Shown: positions 3,900-18,621 of the stretch, one piece after another
Layout: each line of letters opens with the position of its first letter
How positions within the stretch are numbered: the first letter of the stretch is position 1
Made by a program: the position numbers and the translations under genes
NCBI GenBank assembly: GCA_030690175.1
Contig: JAUYHE010000053.1
Span: 1-34,963, forward strand
DNA length: 34,963 bases
Reading direction: 5' to 3'
From: a bacterium
GTDB lineage: Bacteria > Patescibacteriota > Microgenomatia > Woykebacterales > RBG-16-39-9b
Notes under the pieces: generated by a model
The model's input: only the letters and a program-made list of their open reading frames with translations
Database searches by the model: none
What the model was told of the DNA's origin: nothing

Positions 3900-4760
3900 T
3901 TATTCCAACGCGATGGCGGCGGTACTAATATCGAGAATTTCCTTGGTAATTACCTCTTGTCTGATACCATTGTAAGTCAAAGTAAGATCATCAACTAGTT
4001 CCCCAGCATTTTCAGTGGCGTTTTTCATCGTCACCATTCTAGCAGAATGCTCACTGGCTTTAGCTTCAAGCAGGATCTGATAAAGCTCCATCAGTATATA
4101 TTGAGGCAGGATGGATTCTAAAACAGTATCGGGATCAGGTTCAAAAAGTGGTTCTAATTTTTCCGTGGTCTCCGCTTCCTTAGCCACCTCTTCTAAAATA
4201 CCCCTACTAATTATCGGCAAAAGTTGCTTTATGGTGGCGATTTGTTTGAGGGTTGAGATAAATTCGGTGTAGACTACGTAAGTCTGATCAAATTCGCGTT
4301 TTAGAAATCCATCGATTATGAATGAAGCTAGCGGTCTAACGGTAGCTAAGTTAGAGCTGTCAGAAAGTGGAAAATCAGCTAATAGATTTTTTCCCGACTT
4401 AACAACGAAATTGCGTGCCTTTTTGCCAAGCGTAAGAAATTTTAGATTTCCAACCAGACTTGATAGTTCCCGAAATAAATTACTGTTGATAGATCCTGCC
4501 AGCCCCCGATCGGTGGAAAACAAAATAATAGCTGCCGTCTCACCACCAGTTCTCGCCAAAAGGGGATGCGAGTCGGCGTTAATTCGGTTCGCAATCGACC
4601 GGATGACATTATTTACCAGATTTGAGTAAGGTTTACCACTGTTAGCCAGATTTTGAGCTCGCTTCATTTTTGCGGCGGCTACTAACTCCATAGCGTGGGT
4701 GATTTTAGCGGTGTTTTGGATTGAGCGGATTCGACCGCGGATTTCTCTAAGTGAAGCCAT
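3900..4760 (-). CDS. atpG: F1 ATP synthase gamma subunit
   Basis: N-terminal IRGRIRSIQNTAKITHAMELVAAAKMKRAQ and C-terminal YNGIRQEVITKEILDI are gamma hallmarks. Confidence 0.93.
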   Translation of the reverse strand: MASLREIRGRIRSIQNTAKITHAMELVAAAKMKRAQNLANSGKPYSNLVNNVIRSIANRINADSHPLLARTGGETAAIILFSTDRGLAGSINSNLFRELSSLVGNLKFLTLGKKARNFVVKSGKNLLADFPLSDSSNLATVRPLASFIIDGFLKREFDQTYVVYTEFISTLKQIATIKQLLPIISRGILEEVAKEAETTEKLEPLFEPDPDTVLESILPQYILMELYQILLEAKASEHSARMVTMKNATENAGELVDDLTLTYNGIRQEVITKEILDISTAAIALE

Positions 4761-4787: not shown

Positions 4788-6284
4788 TTAGATCTTAAAT
4801 CCTTTCTGAAACTCTTGGATAGATTTTTCTAATTCTTTAGTTACTTTTTCTTCTAGGGTTTTTTCTTTAGCAATAATTTCTAAGAGTTTTGCTTTCTTTG
4901 TTTTCATAAAATCCAAGAAATTACTTTCAAAACCCTTAATTTTATCAATTGGTATTTCGTCAAGCATTCCGTTGGTCACAGCCCAGATCATAACTACTTG
5001 TTGTTCAATTGGCATGGGTACGTATTGAGGTTGTTTTAATACTTCGACGGTTCTTTTCCCCCGCTCCAATCGGTTGCGAGTTGCCTCGTCCAGGTCGCTG
5101 CCAAACTGAGCAAAAGAAGCTAGCTCGTGATATTGAGCTAAATCCAGCCTCAAACTACCCGCCACTGCTTTCATCGCTTTTATTTGAGCGGCGCCACCTA
5201 CTCTTGAAACAGACAAACCGACGTTTACGGCCGGTCGGGTACCAGCAAAAAATAGATCACTTTCAAGGTAAATTTGCCCGTCAGTTATCGAAATTACGTT
5301 GGTAGGTATATAAGCCGAAACATCACCAGCTTGAGTCTCAATTATTGGAAGAGCGGTGAGAGAACCGCCACCTAAATCTTTATTTAATTTAGCCGCCCGC
5401 TCAAGTAATCGGCTGTGGAGATAAAATATATCGCCTGGATAGGCCTCCCGAGCTGATGGTCGGCGCAGCGTTAAAGAAATTTGACGGTAAGCCCAAGCGT
5501 GCTTGGATAAATCATCGTAGATTACAAGAGCGTCTTTTCCAGCGTCCATAAAGTACTCACCAATAGCACAACCAGCGTAGGGTGCAATAAAGGCCGTTGC
5601 CGCCGAATCTTCTGCCGAGGCAGCGACAATGATTGTGTGGTTCATAGCGCCGTGTTTTTCCAGGTTGTCAACAATCTGGGCGATTTTTGAGGCTTTTTGA
5701 CTAATGGCAACGTAGATGCAGATTACACCAGTATTTTTTTGGTTAATGATTGCATCGATTGTAATCGCGGTTTTGCCCAGGCCCCGATCTCCAATAATTA
5801 GTTCTCTCTGACCTCGGCCAATCGGGATCATCGCGTCAATTGCCTTCAGACCGGTTTGCAAGGGGGTGTTTACTGACTGGCGAGTAATGACGCCCGGAGC
5901 GATTTTTTCGATTGGATAGGTTTGTTTAAATTTAACCGGGCCCCGTCCATCGATTGGGTTACCCAAGGGATCGAGTACCCTTCCGATCAAACCATCGCCA
6001 ACAGGAATAGAAAGAATCTCTCCAGTAGACTTTGCCTCGTCACCCTCTTTTAACAGCTTATAATCTCCGAAAATAATGATACCCACGTTGCTTTCCTCGA
6101 GATTTAGAGCCAGCCCGTACAAGTTGTGAGGAAGCTGGACTAGTTCGTTATACGCCACGTTTGAAATCCCCTCTATCTTGGCGATACCATCGCCGATTTC
6201 AATTATTCGACCGATATTTTCCGCTTGCGAGGAAAGCTTTAAATCCTTTATTTCCTTTTCGAGTTGTTTAACGATGTCGACCAC
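4788..6284 (-). CDS. atpA: F1 ATP synthase alpha subunit
   Basis: Walker A GDRGLGKT, plus [23 protein letters not shown]-type alpha motifs. Confidence 0.97.
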
Positions 6285-6678: not shown

Positions 6679-7171
6679 TTTTGATATCCTTGATAGCTTT
6701 TTGAATCAATCTTTCCTTGTCGCTATCTTTCAAAGCTTTGCCTACCACTTTTTCGGTTGCTATAGCGACCATTTCCACGATTTGGTTGCGGGCTTCCAAA
6801 ATCATCTTTTGATTGTCCAGCTCCAGAGATTGTTGCGTTCTTTTCACGGTTTCGTCTATCGATTTCTTCGTTTCGTTTTGCAGCTGGTCACTTAGAAGCT
6901 TGGCCTCTTCTTTTGCGGTTTGAATGAAGGTGGTAGCTTCTTTTCTTGCCTGGTCCAAAATTTCTTCCTGCTTTGTAGTCGATTCTTCAAATCTCTTTTG
7001 GATCTCCTCAGCTTGTTTCAGCGACGTGGCTATTTTATTTTTCCTTTCCTCCAAAACTCTAAGTATCGGTTTGTACAAAAACCGCTGCAGAATAAAAATC
7101 AGTATTACAAAATTTACTATTTGAGCCAAAAGCAAAATTGGCTCCACACCAAAGGTTTTTAAAATTTCCAT
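6668..7171 (-). CDS. atpF: Fo ATP synthase subunit b
   Basis: Single N-terminal TM followed by a long charged coiled-coil. Operon position fits. Confidence 0.8.
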   Translation of the reverse strand: MEILKTFGVEPILLLAQIVNFVILIFILQRFLYKPILRVLEERKNKIATSLKQAEEIQKRFEESTTKQEEILDQARKEATTFIQTAKEEAKLLSDQLQNETKKSIDETVKRTQQSLELDNQKMILEARNQIVEMVAIATEKVVGKALKDSDKERLIQKAIKDIKNEN

Positions 7172-15024: not shown

Positions 15025-15142
15025 AAAACCTCGCTTCGCTTGGAATTAAGAGTTAAGAATTCAAAATTAATAATTAAAACTCTTTCTGAACTCTGCCTTC
15101 TGAATTATGAACTCATTAAACCTTCGTGTTTTTTCTGGTTAA

Positions 15143-15172
15143 ATTATCGTACAATTTTCGGCCGTTTGTCAA
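15143..15172 (-). promoter_or_regulatory. candidate lexA promoter TTGACA-18-GATAAT
   Basis: The minus strand reads TTGACA (15172-15167) and GATAAT (15148-15143). This implies a leader of about 110 nt ending in a GAGG SD. Confidence 0.45.
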
Positions 15173-15182
15173 CTGGATAAAA

Positions 15183-15353
15183 GTGTATCAATTCTTTTCG
15201 GACCCCGAGGCTATTCGAATAGCACCAGGTGCCGAACTCACCGTTCGTAACCAGGACACAGGAGACTTCATAGTGGTGCACGGAAGTCCGACGGGAAGAG
15301 TGGAGGTTGTAGACTCTAGCTTTTCGGACCCGGATTACGGCGACAAGCGTTGA
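15183..15353 (+). CDS. possible 56-aa small protein (GTG start) inside GC-rich island 1; alternatively non-coding
   Basis: It is the only ORF in the island (track ORF 15126-15353). Hydrophilic, with no clear SD and no recognised family. Its two FSDP motifs coincide with the 12-nt direct repeat. Confidence 0.25.
   Translation: MYQFFSDPEAIRIAPGAELTVRNQDTGDFIVVHGSPTGRVEVVDSSFSDPDYGDKR
15194..15331 (+). repeat. two perfect copies of CTTTTCGGACCC (15194-15205 and 15320-15331)
   Basis: Direct repeat read from the sequence. Both copies are complementary to GTCCGA at 15286-15291. Confidence 0.8.
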
Positions 15354-15386
15354 GGTTCACACACTCCTGGTAAGACTGACGCATTG

Positions 15387-15450
15387 ACCGCAGCAAGAAA
15401 AGTGTGACTGCAAGTTACACGGTCCTGGCTGCGGTTTTCATTTTCAGTTT
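15387..15450 (+). terminator. intrinsic-terminator-like long hairpin plus U-tract upstream of uvrB
   Basis: ACCGCAGC (15387-94) pairs with GCTGCGGT (15428-35). The inner stem is GTGTGAC/GTTACAC (15402-08/15414-20, with one G-U that works only on the plus strand). It is followed by TTTTCATTTTCAGTTTT. Confidence 0.6.
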
Positions 15451-15485
15451 TAAATCCTACCTTCTTGAGTTAAAATATAAAACCT

Positions 15486-17513
15486 ATGGACAAATTTGAC
15501 TTAAAAGCACCATGGCCGCCGACCGGTGACCAACCACAGGCTATTTCTAGCCTTTCAGAAGGTCTGAAAAAGGGCTTTCGGTACCAAACCCTGCTTGGTG
15601 CTACTGGAAGTGGTAAGACTTTCACTATGGCTAGTATAGTGGCGGATTTAAATCGTCCTACTCTGGTTATCGCCCACAACAAGACCCTCGCAGCTCAACT
15701 GGCAGCCGAGTTTCGCGAGTTTTTTCCAAACAACGCGGTGGAGTACTTCGTCTCTTACTATGATTATTATCAACCCGAGGCTTACGTACCTCAGATAGAT
15801 CTTTATATCGAAAAAGATGCTGCCATCAATGAAGAAATAGACCGACTTCGTTTAGCGGCGACTAAAGCTCTTCTTACTCGTAAGGATGTTTTGATTGTAG
15901 CCAGCGTTTCTTGTATCTACAACATTGGTTCGCCCGATGCCTATAAGCAAAGTACTTTGACATTATTCAAAGGTCAAAACTTACCTCTAGCAAAGGTCAA
16001 GGAGTCTCTTGTGCATTTGCAGTATGAGCGGAGCGATATAGATCTAAGGAGATCGACGTTTCGGGTGAAAGGAGACGCTCTAGAACTTTATCCAGCTTAC
16101 GAAGAATTCGCCGTTAGAGTTTCTTATTTTGGAGATAAAATTGAAAAAATTACTAAAGTGAACTCAACAAGTTTTGAAGAAATTGAAGAATTGAATGAAC
16201 TGATGGTTTTTCCAGCCAGGCATTACAACGTTCCTATAGACCTTTCTTACGACCCGCTTGAGCAAATCAAAGATGAATTTGCGGACTGGAGTAAAAAACT
16301 TAAGAAACAAAAAAAGATAATTGAGTTGCAGCGCCTTACCAATCGGGTCAAGTATGATCTGGAGATGCTACGCGAAATCGGCTTTGTGAAAGGAATTGAA
16401 AATTACTCGCGCTTTTTTGACGGCAGAAAGCCTGGGGAACCACCGTTCACGTTGTTGGATTACTTTCCTAAAGATTTCATTACTTTTATCGACGAATCTC
16501 ATATGAGCCTTCCCCAAATTCGCGGAATGTGGCACGGTGAGAAAAAGCGCAAAGAGTTACTTATTGAGAATGGTTTTCGCCTGCCAAGTGCTATGGACAA
16601 CAGACCGCTTACCTACGAAGAATTTATGAGGACAGTGGGTCAAATGGTGTTTGTTTCGGCCACACCCAATGACTATGAGTTGTCCCTGTCAAACCAAGTT
16701 GCCGAGCAAATAATCCGACCGACCGGTATTGTTGATCCGCAGGTTGAAATACGAAAAACAGCCAGCCAAATCCCAGATCTGATAAACGAGATTCAAAAAC
16801 GTGTCGAAAAAAGACAGAGAGTCTTGGTTACGACTCTTACGAAGCGGATGGCCGAAGACCTGACCGATTATCTTCTTGAAAAAGAAATTAAAGTCATGTA
16901 TATACACCACGAAGTCGATACCTTGGAAAGGGTAGATATTTTACGAGATCTAAGGTTGGGAAAATACGATTGCTTAGTTGGTATCAACTTGCTCCGCGAG
17001 GGCCTTGATCTGCCGGAAGTTTCTCTAGTTGCTATTCTCGATGCCGATAAAGAAGGCTTTTTGCGTAGTAAGACAGCTCTTATTCAGACTATCGGTCGAG
17101 CGGCCCGCCATATCGACGGGAAAGTAATAATGTACGCCGATGAGGTTACCGGCTCTATGAAAATAGCGCTTGATGAGACCAATCGGCGGCGGGAAATTCA
17201 AATAGAATACAACAAAAAACACAACATTACTCCGGAAACAGTCCAAAAAACCATCCGTGACATCGGGGAAAGGTTAAAGCAACTTCAACCAGAGGCAGAA
17301 GTGGCCCAAGAGCTTGATTTATCAAAAGTTCCGAAAGATGAATTGAAAGGTTTGATTCGTGATTTGACCAGCGAGATGACGGACGCCGCCAAAAACCTGG
17401 ATTTTGAACGGGCCGCAATTTTGCGGGATCAATTATTGGTAATTAAGAAGCAACAACTGGAAGTCCCGAAAACAATTACCCCACAAGAAGCCAAAAAGAC
17501 GAAATTTCCCTAG
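15486..17513 (+). CDS. uvrB: excinuclease ABC subunit B
   Basis: GATGSGKT Walker A, DESH box, helicase motifs and a C-terminal UVR domain (LDFERAAILRDQL). Confidence 0.97.
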   Translation: MDKFDLKAPWPPTGDQPQAISSLSEGLKKGFRYQTLLGATGSGKTFTMASIVADLNRPTLVIAHNKTLAAQLAAEFREFFPNNAVEYFVSYYDYYQPEAYVPQIDLYIEKDAAINEEIDRLRLAATKALLTRKDVLIVASVSCIYNIGSPDAYKQSTLTLFKGQNLPLAKVKESLVHLQYERSDIDLRRSTFRVKGDALELYPAYEEFAVRVSYFGDKIEKITKVNSTSFEEIEELNELMVFPARHYNVPIDLSYDPLEQIKDEFADWSKKLKKQKKIIELQRLTNRVKYDLEMLREIGFVKGIENYSRFFDGRKPGEPPFTLLDYFPKDFITFIDESHMSLPQIRGMWHGEKKRKELLIENGFRLPSAMDNRPLTYEEFMRTVGQMVFVSATPNDYELSLSNQVAEQIIRPTGIVDPQVEIRKTASQIPDLINEIQKRVEKRQRVLVTTLTKRMAEDLTDYLLEKEIKVMYIHHEVDTLERVDILRDLRLGKYDCLVGINLLREGLDLPEVSLVAILDADKEGFLRSKTALIQTIGRAARHIDGKVIMYADEVTGSMKIALDETNRRREIQIEYNKKHNITPETVQKTIRDIGERLKQLQPEAEVAQELDLSKVPKDELKGLIRDLTSEMTDAAKNLDFERAAILRDQLLVIKKQQLEVPKTITPQEAKKTKFP

Positions 17514-17552
17514 AGAAAAGATGAAGCTCTCATGCGGGTACGACATGAGAGC
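17511..17552 (-). terminator. minus-strand intrinsic terminator of the large ncRNA
   Basis: Perfect 9-bp stem GCTCTCATG/CATGAGAGC (17526-34/17544-52). On the minus strand it is followed by TTCATCTTTTCTCT. There is no T-tract on the plus strand. Confidence 0.6.
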
Positions 17553-18089
17553 CCAAGGAACGGAATGGTACGGAACGGAACCAGAACGGCAAGGCACTGG
17601 AACGTAGCCGGACCTTATACTTCACCCTCACCCGCTTCCGCTATGGTACCCAAAAGCGGTGGGATTGAAGCCGATTTGAGGCGGAGAGAAGTAGCTCGGT
17701 GATCTCTGGCAAAGGCCGACCCAGCAACTCCCCGCCGATGGTGTCACGCTGGGGTTCAGCAATTCAGCGTGTTCGCACCCAAAGTCAGTGAGGGGTAGCC
17801 CGAGAACGGTAGGCAAATGCAGTGCATCTGTGGACCTCCTTTCGGAAGTTACCACTACCCTCAGTTGTTTATCCGGTCCCAAGACTCAGGCTTCGCCGGA
17901 AGTATGAGCAGGTAGCCATCGTGCATCTCTCTCTATGGCTCCGGCGCTCTTTGGGCCCTGGGACCGCGAAAAGGTTCCGCCCGAACGGCAGGGGCCGAAG
18001 CAATGGGTTACGTAGCCCAGGGAGGGGGTAACGTCACCCGTGCAGACGGCTTCATGCCTTGGGGCGGATCTGTAATAGACACAAAGTGC
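17515..18089 (-). ncRNA. unclassified large (about 575 nt) GC-rich structured RNA candidate
   Basis: Bounded by the TTGACA-17-TATAAA promoter and the terminator above. Contains only short overlapping low-complexity ORFs. Has multiple helices with GNRA/UUCG-type loops and G-U pairs that work only on the minus strand. Confidence 0.5.
17557..17603 (-). repeat. cluster of GGAAC-type pentamers (GUUCC on the minus-strand RNA)
   Basis: On the plus strand: GGAAC at 17557, 17572, 17577 and 17599, plus GGAAT at 17562 and AGAAC at 17583. All lie within 47 nt. Confidence 0.7.
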
Positions 18090-18095
18090 AGGCTA

Positions 18096-18124
18096 TTTAT
18101 AACTCAAAATTTCCGGAATGTCAA
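18096..18124 (-). promoter_or_regulatory. near-consensus sigma70-type promoter TTGACA-17-TATAAA
   Basis: Minus strand -35 at 18124-18119 and -10 at 18101-18096, with an exact 17-nt spacer. It sits in a short AT-rich patch inside the GC-rich island. Confidence 0.5.
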
Positions 18125-18306
18125 CTTAAACGAATTGGAAACAATGAAAGGAGCCGACCCCAGGAGTCCATCAGCCGCTGTAGTAGCGCTGATCATCCAG
18201 GACTTCTGGAGCCGGTAGTGATAGTTTGGAGAGTCAGGCCCAGACACCCTTTTCGGGGGTCCTTTTGAAGGTACCGCCTAGCCTGGACCTGACTCACGCG
18301 ATTGGG
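18125..18306 (-). other. GC-rich structured spacer / 3' UTR downstream of the wHTH gene
   Basis: A roughly 14-bp interrupted hairpin spans 18165-18204. An 8+4-bp stem (18231-43/18283-95) encloses a hairpin at 18244-18260. Confidence 0.3.
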
Positions 18307-18621
18307 TTAGGCGAAATCAGTCTTTGTTGAGGGTGAATATTCCCGCGTGAGTTTACCGATAACGTCCTTCATAGGAAACTCCATGATTGGGTGCGTGAAC
18401 GTAGCGTCCAGATTGACAGTGTAGTGATGACGCCGTCCGTCTTTCCGGACCTTAATCATGTCCTTGCGGCGCAGGTCACCGATGATACCCCAAACAGTAC
18501 GCCTGGTAAGGGACATCTCCTCCGCGATCTGTTTAATGGTGCAGCCTGGGTGCACGGCAATGTAAAAAAGGATAGCGCCGTGGCTAGAGACGAGCCACCA
18601 CTGAGGCTCTTGTTTTCCCAT
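18307..18621 (-). CDS. small winged-helix (MarR/ArsR-like) DNA-binding protein
   Basis: CTIKQIAEEMSLTRRTVWGIIGDLRRKDMIKVRKDGRRHHY forms an HTH plus wing. I prefer Met6, because GGAGG lies 8 nt upstream of it. The ORF extends to 18636. GC content is higher than in flanking genes. Confidence 0.7.
   Translation of the reverse strand: MGKQEPQWWLVSSHGAILFYIAVHPGCTIKQIAEEMSLTRRTVWGIIGDLRRKDMIKVRKDGRRHHYTVNLDATFTHPIMEFPMKDVIGKLTREYSPSTKTDFA

Follow-up and report, generated by a model that had tools for sequence, protein, structure and literature searches.

The 34,963-nt contig JAUYHE010000053.1 (hereafter the window, meaning this whole stretch of DNA) carries, in this order, lexA on the minus strand, uvrB on the plus strand, a 790-nt gap, a minus-strand gene for a winged helix-turn-helix (wHTH) protein and uvrA on the plus strand. 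The question raised by this locus is what the gap between uvrB and the wHTH gene encodes. The window UvrB is 76–84% identical to proteins labelled Candidatus Woykebacteria, and the host is a bacterium of the candidate phyla radiation (CPR). The original prediction, made from the letters of the DNA, placed in the gap a minus-strand RNA gene delimited by its own promoter and terminator. Our analysis supports this claim through homologs that lie on the same strand and have signals of their own, through the lack of a conserved reading frame and through covarying helices. It appears that the gap probably holds a genuine, independently transcribed and structured non-coding RNA of ∼575 nt, a shortened member of a family of Woykebacteria-type (CPR) loci. 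This RNA family is apparently uncatalogued and lineage-restricted, being known so far only in loci of that type.

A sigma-70-like promoter, TTGACA and TATAAA separated by exactly 17 nt, precedes the RNA as had been claimed, and the predicted start of transcription lies near position 18089 of the minus strand. The whole window has a single match to TTGACA-N17-TATAAW, against 0.01 expected from dinucleotide shuffles; our generic promoter scan missed this site because it demands a T at position 6 of the −10 box. At the other end, a terminator scan returned, on the minus strand only, a 12-pair stem (17554–17524) followed by CATCTTTTCT / CAUCUUUUCU, and the perfect 9-bp hairpin proposed previously forms its core (17552–17544/17534–17526). 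The U-tract does overlap the stop codon of uvrB, with which the RNA is convergent, and this arrangement is kept in seven of the eight loci compared below. The GC content is 0.54–0.585 across 17500–18099 versus ∼0.36–0.50 in flanking windows. The RNAfold z-score is −3.82 for the minus strand (0 of 100 shuffles were as stable) and −1.93 for the plus strand. The internal helices that had been listed (the hairpin with a GNRA loop, the helix enclosing it and the hairpin with a GUUCG loop) were found as described, all of them in the unconstrained minimum free energy (MFE) fold. On the minus strand, the unit is delimited by a strong promoter-like site and, as judged from the letters, an intrinsic terminator.

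Relatives of the RNA were reached through close homologs of UvrB and through low-GC homologs of the wHTH protein; nhmmer with the window RNA alone found no homolog in the wHTH-anchored loci. Eight Woykebacteria-type loci, L039, L040, L041 (= L024), L042, L043 (= L044), L027 (= L045), L014 and L012, have a homologous non-coding gap or unit of 0.6–1.6 kb on the same strand, and the UvrB proteins of L039–L045 are 78–84% identical to that of the window. The uvrB/uvrA setting is kept in seven of them (L039–L043, L027 and L014); in L012 a short form of the RNA stands in another gene context, not next to uvrB. Promoter-like sites are present on the RNA strand, namely TTGACA-17-TAAAAT in L039–L041, TTGACA-17-TAGAAT in L027 and an extended −10 box, TGnTATAAT, in L014, L042, L043 and L013. 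A terminator hairpin with a U-tract is found in all eight genomes, and at the uvrB-linked units it adjoins the uvrB stop. Estimated lengths of the RNA range from ∼280 nt (L012) to ∼980 nt (L040/L041), and in most relatives additional 5′ modules make it longer or alter its make-up. Similarity between members is mosaic: the window RNA is colinear with the 3′ two-thirds of the L039–L041 RNAs, the first aligned block begins at window position 18074, ∼15 nt past the predicted start, and the best block (window 17734–17661) is 88% identical to L040. A hidden Markov model of the core gives exactly one match per Woykebacteria-type locus and none in Chloroflexi-type loci or elsewhere in the window. In exact-pattern scans of viral contigs, a 14-mer of the core gave chance matches only, with no extended similarity.

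What the relatives share is a 3′ domain (window 17736–17524) with a fixed order of elements: helix Px, the junction UCAAAUYG, helix Pc that encloses hairpin Py, and the terminator hairpin T. Px forms in all six genomes that have the segment, with double changes in seven of its eight pairs; L042 and L027 have unrelated 13-bp helices. Pc joins GCUUCA.. with ..UGAAG(U/C) and is extended differently from genome to genome (AAAACC/GGUUUU, ACCC/GGGU, UAC/GUA), and almost every genome has a Py stem of its own (CGCUU/AAGCG, UCUCU/AGAGA, ACUUGCU/AGCGAGU, CCGUUU/AAACGG and others). The Py loop begins U-GGGAGU, and the loop pair of the relatives reads GGGAGU.../...ACUCCC. The Py and T loops are complementary to each other in all eight genomes, with matching changes, and a kissing-loop contact between them is predicted. 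Despite the differences in sequence, Px, Pc, Py, T and the loop–loop pairing form in every genome having the segment.

Pairs were counted on an alignment (A5) limited to the helix strands, which were put in register manually and linked through constant artificial spacer tags, since plain MAFFT alignments (of the core or of N-padded blocks) lost the helix register. In this alignment double changes occur in 32 of 34 pairs. Paired cells, the pseudoknot included, make up 95.7% of 256, versus 69.2% after shuffling (0 of 500 shuffles were as high) and 45–51% after sliding, and the covariation score is 0.80 versus 0.27 and 0.10–0.16, respectively. When strand assignments were permuted 20,000 times, those as good as the cognate one numbered 1 for the loops, 0 for Py, 0 for T, 177 for Px and 106 for Pc. 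The loop complementarity of the window was matched by 4 of 500 shuffled loops; within each RNA the T loop ranks near the top among possible partners of the Py loop, and 0–17 of 500 shuffled loops equal it. Two results do not depend on the registration. RNAalifold, given a plain MAFFT alignment that comprised the window and L039–L041, pairs the Py-loop with the T-loop sequence, and the same run also finds the closing helix of the three-way junction along with the next hairpin. When each sequence was folded singly and without constraints, the MFE structure contained Px in 6/6, T in 8/8 and Pc together with Py in 6/8 genomes. About 17 of the paired cells in the hand-registered count are G-U or U-G; read from the opposite strand, these would turn into A-C mismatches, in keeping with the direction of the promoter and terminator. 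The covariation among homologs that the original prediction looked to is placed at 17736–17524, where it had listed only the terminator hairpin, and is not seen in its GNRA, enclosing and GUUCG helices.

It should be noted that several points weigh against the reading of this RNA as a genuine structured gene. The support consists of sequence and comparative evidence, and the eight genomes amount to about six independent lineages, because L039, L040 and L041 are close relatives. The pair counts lean towards the model, since we selected the helix strands visually and fitted the alignment to the structure with artificial tags. MFE folding favours other Pc/Py pairings in L039 and L027. The GNRA hairpin, its closing helix and the GUUCG hairpin show no covariation, as the first has no counterpart in relatives and the other two are unchanged or partly kept. 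For this CPR host the promoter was scored with a consensus of the E. coli type, and its activity is predicted. No complementary target was found in the window, and the partner considered below is one that we infer. Finally, the window copy is without the 5′ leader and a segment, called block A here, that are found in all other members, so that it could be a decaying copy; its own compensated loop–loop pair, which it keeps, argues against decay. Coordinates of all features are collected in Table 1.

Table 1. Features of the RNA locus; coordinates are those of the window unless another locus is named
Feature	Position	Strand	Sequence, basis or remark
Predicted non-coding RNA gene, ∼575–580 nt	17510–18089	minus	GC profile, fold z-scores, no conserved ORF, colinearity with L039/L040/L041
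Sigma-70-like promoter	18124–18096	minus	−35 TTGACA 18124–18119, 17-nt spacer, −10 TATAAA 18101–18096
5′ segment	18074–18020	minus	ACAGAUCCGCCCCAAGGCA...; resembles the stretch after block A in L040/L041
GUUCG hairpin	17991–17977	minus	CUGCC GUUCG GGCGG; loop and three pairs kept in L040/L041
Long interrupted helix, ∼26-nt arms, apical sub-domain	17965–17875	minus	Inverted repeat I1; MFE folds of window and L039
Three-way-junction domain	17862–17790	minus	Closed by GAGGGUAG/CUACCCCUC (17862–17855 / 17798–17790)
GNRA (GAAA) hairpin	17855–17830	minus	GUGG-UA-ACUUCC GAAA GGAGGU-CCAC; inside three-way-junction domain
Conserved strand	17789–17771	minus	ACUGACUUUGGGUGCGAAC; alignment and RNAalifold, columns 360–415
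Hairpin ACGCUG...CAGCGU	17770–17746	minus	Hairpin of different sequence at same place in L039–L041
Helix Px	17736–17680	minus	GGCGGGGAG (17736–17728) with CUCUCCGCC (17688–17680), enclosing a variable hairpin
Junction J	17679–17672	minus	UCAAAUCG; with following GCUUCA, most conserved sequence of the family
Helix Pc	17671–17619	minus	GCUUCAAUCCCAC (17671–17659) with GUGAGGGUGAAGU (17631–17619), enclosing Py
Hairpin Py	17658–17654 / 17637–17633	minus	Stem CGCUU with AAGCG; inside Pc
Py/T loops, window	17651–17646 / 17541–17536	minus	GGGUAC / GUACCC; predicted kissing-loop contact
Py/T loops, L039			GGGAGUGU / ACACUCCC
Py/T loops, L040			GGGAGCG / CGCUCCC
Py/T loops, L042			GGGAGUAC / GUGCUCCC
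Py/T loops, L014			GGAGAGU / ACUCUCC
Py/T loops, L027			GAGGUG / CACCUC
GUUCC/UUCCG repeat run	17587–17557	minus	GUUCUGGUUCCGUUCCGUACCAUUCCGUUCC; between Pc and terminator; similar run only in L027 (∼5140–5165)
Terminator hairpin T	17554–17524	minus	Stem 17554–17544 / 17534–17524; terminator scan
U-rich tract	17523–17510	minus	CAUCUUUUCUCUAG; overlaps uvrB stop codon 17511–17513
Hairpin H, small three-way junction	18295–18231	minus	Conserved CCCnGAAnGGGUGUC; alignment, RNAalifold
Second long hairpin	18215–18154	minus	Alignment
Block A, relatives	L039 ∼3471–3301; L040 ∼6498–6331; L027 ∼4595–4745; L012 1965–2074		
uvrB	15486–17513	plus	Stop codon 17511–17513
Winged-helix (MarR/ArsR-like) gene, 109 aa	18307–18636	minus	Pfam MarR_2/HTH_24, synteny; adjoins RNA upstream, same strand

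The region does not look like a protein-coding one. Its longest minus-strand open reading frame (ORF) codes for 84 aa from a TTG start and is unmatched in Pfam, and tblastn of the six frames of the gap against the homologous gaps found no conserved reading frame. The tblastn similarity is limited to one 75-nt block with about equal scores in all frames and on both strands, therefore conservation is at the level of nucleotides and not of protein. Spurious ORF calls lie over the RNA in L041 (4195–4518, 107 aa) and in L012 (489–1088, 199 aa), both without a Pfam match.

Nor did we find the RNA among the catalogued families. The 4,227 covariance models of Rfam 15, which include RNase P, tmRNA, 6S, SRP, OLE, ROOL, GOLLD, HEARO, raiA, riboswitches, T-box and group I/II introns, gave no match at the gathering threshold across the whole window. 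At E < 10, the sole match in 17300–18500 is an 11.9-bit chance match to a human long non-coding RNA model, outside the RNA, and nine homologous loci had no match at E < 0.1 or E < 1. BLASTN in distant mode with 17480–18320 returned nothing similar from phage and plasmid collections, and a literature search found no paper describing this RNA. The RNA is not placed as a 5′ leader (riboswitch or T-box) would be: its terminator abuts the stop of the convergent uvrB, and the next minus-strand gene past it, lexA, is ∼2.5 kb away across antisense uvrB. A T-box idea based on GGGUACC..GCGG in the Py loop was rejected on topology and on the Rfam results. We also considered RNase P RNA, whose conserved region V (CR-V), ACAGAANCCGGCUUA, pairs with the upstream CR-I to form P4, as the family core CAAAUCGGCUUCAA resembles CR-V over ∼8 nt (AA..CGGCUU). 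Unlike in RNase P, GCUUCA of the family pairs with the downstream UGAAG(U/C) around Py, there is no CR-I-like partner and no RNase P model matches at E < 10; this candidate was rejected and the resemblance is treated as chance.

Bacteria rarely have large structured non-coding RNAs, and every class characterised to date has turned out to be biochemically unusual. OLE, ROOL, GOLLD, HEARO and raiA are large orphan RNAs of this kind. Like them, the Woykebacteria RNA is hundreds of nt long and has several domains, numerous helices and loops of the GNRA/UUCG type, and its GC content is far above that of its AT-rich host genome; it does not code for protein, its phylogenetic range is narrow and it was discovered by comparing sequences, without a known function. 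Unlike them, it matches none of their covariance models, belongs to a CPR host, has very plastic modules (0.28–1.0 kb) and has as its hallmark the pairing of a hairpin loop with the terminator loop of the same RNA. Kissing contacts organise RNA folds, as L2–L3 does in purine riboswitches, and kissing loops have been reported to join the subunits of ROOL/GOLLD assemblies. The contact described here shares with these examples two hairpin loops with 5–8 nt of Watson–Crick complementarity that covary between species. It differs from them in that one partner is the loop of an intrinsic terminator and that it is accompanied by neither a ligand-binding aptamer nor a regulated gene downstream; to our knowledge, a terminator loop engaged in a covarying kissing contact is an arrangement not known from described RNAs. 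A third comparison is with 6S RNA and Ms1, protein-sequestering or scaffold RNAs that have their own promoter and terminator. As in their case, the window RNA is a stand-alone, highly structured transcription unit that is not antisense to a target, and it is predicted to be plausibly abundant and stable; unlike 6S RNA, it is without the long imperfect duplex with a central bubble and has no Rfam match. Judged from its sequence, the RNA appears to be a new family within the known kind of large structured bacterial RNAs and, by the covariance-model test, a member of none of them.

How such an RNA might act can be proposed from the conserved 3′ domain. After transcription, the Py loop would kiss the loop of the terminator hairpin, and this contact would lock the 3′ end into a compact, nuclease-resistant fold in which the near-invariant junction (UCAAAUYG, then GCUUCA) is displayed as a surface for recognition by a partner, more likely a protein than an mRNA in our judgement. 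The RNA would then be a stable, trans-acting RNA of the scaffold or sequestering type, and the variable 5′ and middle domains, the GNRA hairpin included, would be peripheral decorations. A tie to the cluster of DNA-damage and nucleotide-excision-repair genes (lexA–uvrB–RNA–wHTH–uvrA) may be suggested from position only. It is a more tentative thought, and one that we would not yet favour, that this is a new class of large, ornate, modular and CPR-confined RNA whose conserved core (junction and kissing loops) does a biochemical job beyond antisense regulation. Such a class could, for example, form an assembly held by loop–loop contacts, protein-free or protein-assisted and possibly intermolecular like those reported for other giant RNAs of bacteria, or be a ribonucleoprotein tied to the DNA-damage response.

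Among the other explanations, the best surviving one is a base-pairing regulatory RNA, in which the junction UCAAAUYGGCUUCA or a conserved loop serves as a trans-acting seed for mRNAs and the rest of the molecule gives stability. An own promoter with a Rho-independent terminator is the classic layout of small regulatory RNAs, and a short, near-invariant and probably unpaired sequence between helices is present. However, with its 0.28–1.0 kb, many covarying helices and a conserved tertiary contact, the RNA is far larger than a carrier of a seed needs to be, and GCUUCA, which makes up half of the conserved sequence, is predicted to form pairs within Pc. The junction has no complement elsewhere in the 35-kb window, and the best duplexes with translation-initiation regions there are unremarkable. 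We therefore regard this explanation as rather unlikely.

The position of the terminator suggests another possibility, a cis element of the convergent uvrB/RNA pair, whose transcription or read-through would yield RNA antisense to the uvrB 3′ end or which would act as an insulator, the contact of the Py and T loops tuning termination. The overlap of the U-tract with the uvrB stop codon, the convergence kept in seven of the eight compared loci and the use of the terminator loop itself in the conserved tertiary contact all fit such a role. On the other hand, the short member in L012 is not next to uvrB, and the loop contact and the terminator stem are not mutually exclusive, which leaves no obvious switch; an insulator would need neither 0.6–1 kb of covarying structure nor a conserved single-stranded motif. 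A role in cis is improbable on this evidence.

The locus upstream of the promoter bears on a further question, whether there is a separate gene at all. The 180 nt before the promoter (18306–18130) are a detached copy of a 5′ module that other genomes have within the RNA: hairpin H and the second long hairpin are homologous to the RNA 5′ end in L043, L042 and L012, and H, as folded by RNAalifold from the window, L043 and L012, has 23 pairs, 11 of them with double changes. In these three relatives a −10 box comes right after the wHTH stop and the module lies inside the RNA. In the window the −10 box after the wHTH stop is degenerate, and the module sits in the 3′ untranslated region (3′ UTR) of the wHTH gene, split from the body of the RNA by a new consensus promoter. 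One could then see the RNA as a long 3′ UTR or cis-regulatory tail of the wHTH mRNA, as the wHTH gene lies on the same strand directly upstream in most genomes and the H module of the window follows its stop with no good −10 box between. The near-consensus promoter before the RNA body in the window speaks against this, as does the organization of L039–L041, where a terminator hairpin and a fresh TTGACA-17-TAAAAT promoter stand between the wHTH gene and the RNA. Moreover, in L040 the wHTH gene is interrupted by an in-frame TAG (6987–7163, called product 58 aa) and in L042 (7028–7685) it is absent altogether, and in both the RNA is kept with its promoter, core and kissing loops; the RNA thus does not depend on the wHTH gene, and a mere tail of its mRNA is very improbable.

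Composition of the 5′ part varies further. Block A (AUGGACGCGAG...CUCGCGUCCGCCAUCCCC, then UUCCUGAGGGUGAUUCUCUC and hairpin CACCGGUUGCGGGGCUGGUG) is found in L039–L043, L027 and L012 and is absent from the window. Its L043 copy carries a compensatory GCG-to-GUG / CGC-to-CAC change, and it has no match in Rfam or in the exact-pattern scans of viral contigs. In L012 another ORF intervenes between block A and the short RNA, and block A may therefore be a module that can be separated or else a second RNA. From this comparison we read the window RNA as a shortened member of the family. A non-functional remnant, that is a decayed gene or a mobile-element scar that is GC-rich by chance, would agree with a mosaic locus of highly variable length where modules are gained and lost and with a window copy that is without some of them, but it is hardly credible given compensatory changes that preserve five helices and the loop–loop contact across lineages, promoter and terminator signals retained in every genome, no similarity to phage or plasmid records and no conserved frame.

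Returning to the preferred reading of an independent structured RNA, its 5′ and middle domains are variable. The 5′ segment corresponds to a BLAST alignment of window gap positions 257–311 with L040 937–993 at 72% identity. At the GUUCG hairpin, RNAalifold pairs columns 105–107 with 113–115. The architecture of the long interrupted helix is also found in L039, with C-G to U-A exchanges that turn GGUCCC/GGGACC into GGUUCC/GGAACC and CCGG/CCGG into CUAG/CUAG. The helix closing the three-way junction has unchanged sequence in L040/L041, and the interior of this domain, the GNRA hairpin included, has no counterpart in relatives.

Two long-range pairings were considered and dropped. One joins UGAAGCCG (∼18052–18045) with the core CGGCUUCA and is perfect in the window; it was dropped because it is absent in relatives. 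The other would link CGGAGAG of the 5′ leader to a CUCUCCG that lies upstream of the core, and it is not seen consistently from genome to genome. The sequence CGGAA is found in or beside the Py loop only in the window and L027, the two genomes with the GUUCC/UUCCG repeat run, and this shared occurrence may point to a further or alternative pairing. A perfect palindrome, TTCCGGAA (18111–18118), was noticed in the spacer of the window promoter; it is absent from the promoters of homologs and could be an operator. As for a shared LexA-type operator in these promoters, by-eye inspection revealed nothing convincing.

The wHTH gene is a usual but not an obligatory neighbour of the RNA. Searches of PDB and NCBIfam with its protein gave no informative relative and no solved structure by sequence search. 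The protein family is unusually conserved, with 60–72% identity across hundreds of metagenomic proteins. Most relatives of the protein belong to high-GC Chloroflexi- or actinobacteria-like loci, in which this RNA does not follow the gene and nhmmer with the window RNA found nothing. In L002, L006, L015, L022 and L023, the wHTH homolog is followed by a SAM-I-like riboswitch (UUAUCAAGAGAGGUGGAGGGCACGGCCCUGUGAAGCCCGGCAACC..., recognized by eye) and then by a PALP-family gene of the cysteine/threonine synthase type. In L045 (7028–8586) a real wHTH gene was missed by the gene caller, leaving an apparently ‘empty’ gap of 1.56 kb, an example of the way in which this locus misleads automatic annotation.

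On the other side of uvrB, the spacer between lexA and uvrB contains a GC-rich stretch (15126–15460, plus strand, GC 0.55). It holds a 75-aa ORF with a GTG start (15126–15353) and ends with a terminator-like hairpin, GACCGCAGC...GCUGCGGUUUUCAUUUU (∼15388–15440). Past its first ∼170 nt, the spacer has nucleotide similarity only with L039 (66% over 326 nt), and L039 is also the sole locus with translated similarity over the whole ORF (40% over 108 columns). In L042 and L043 the lexA–uvrB spacer is short and the GC-rich stretch is missing. This stretch could be a gene for a small protein or another RNA.

CPR bacteria (Patescibacteria) have tiny genomes under strong streamlining. That such genomes keep a non-coding gene of 0.6–1 kb, with compensated helices and a tertiary contact, suggests a function worth its cost. 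The fixed place of the gene in the lexA–uvrB–uvrA cluster offers a concrete hypothesis on the DNA-damage response in organisms that are not yet culturable alone. The family has a defined fold that can be tested, and it would add an entry to Rfam and improve the annotation of CPR genomes.

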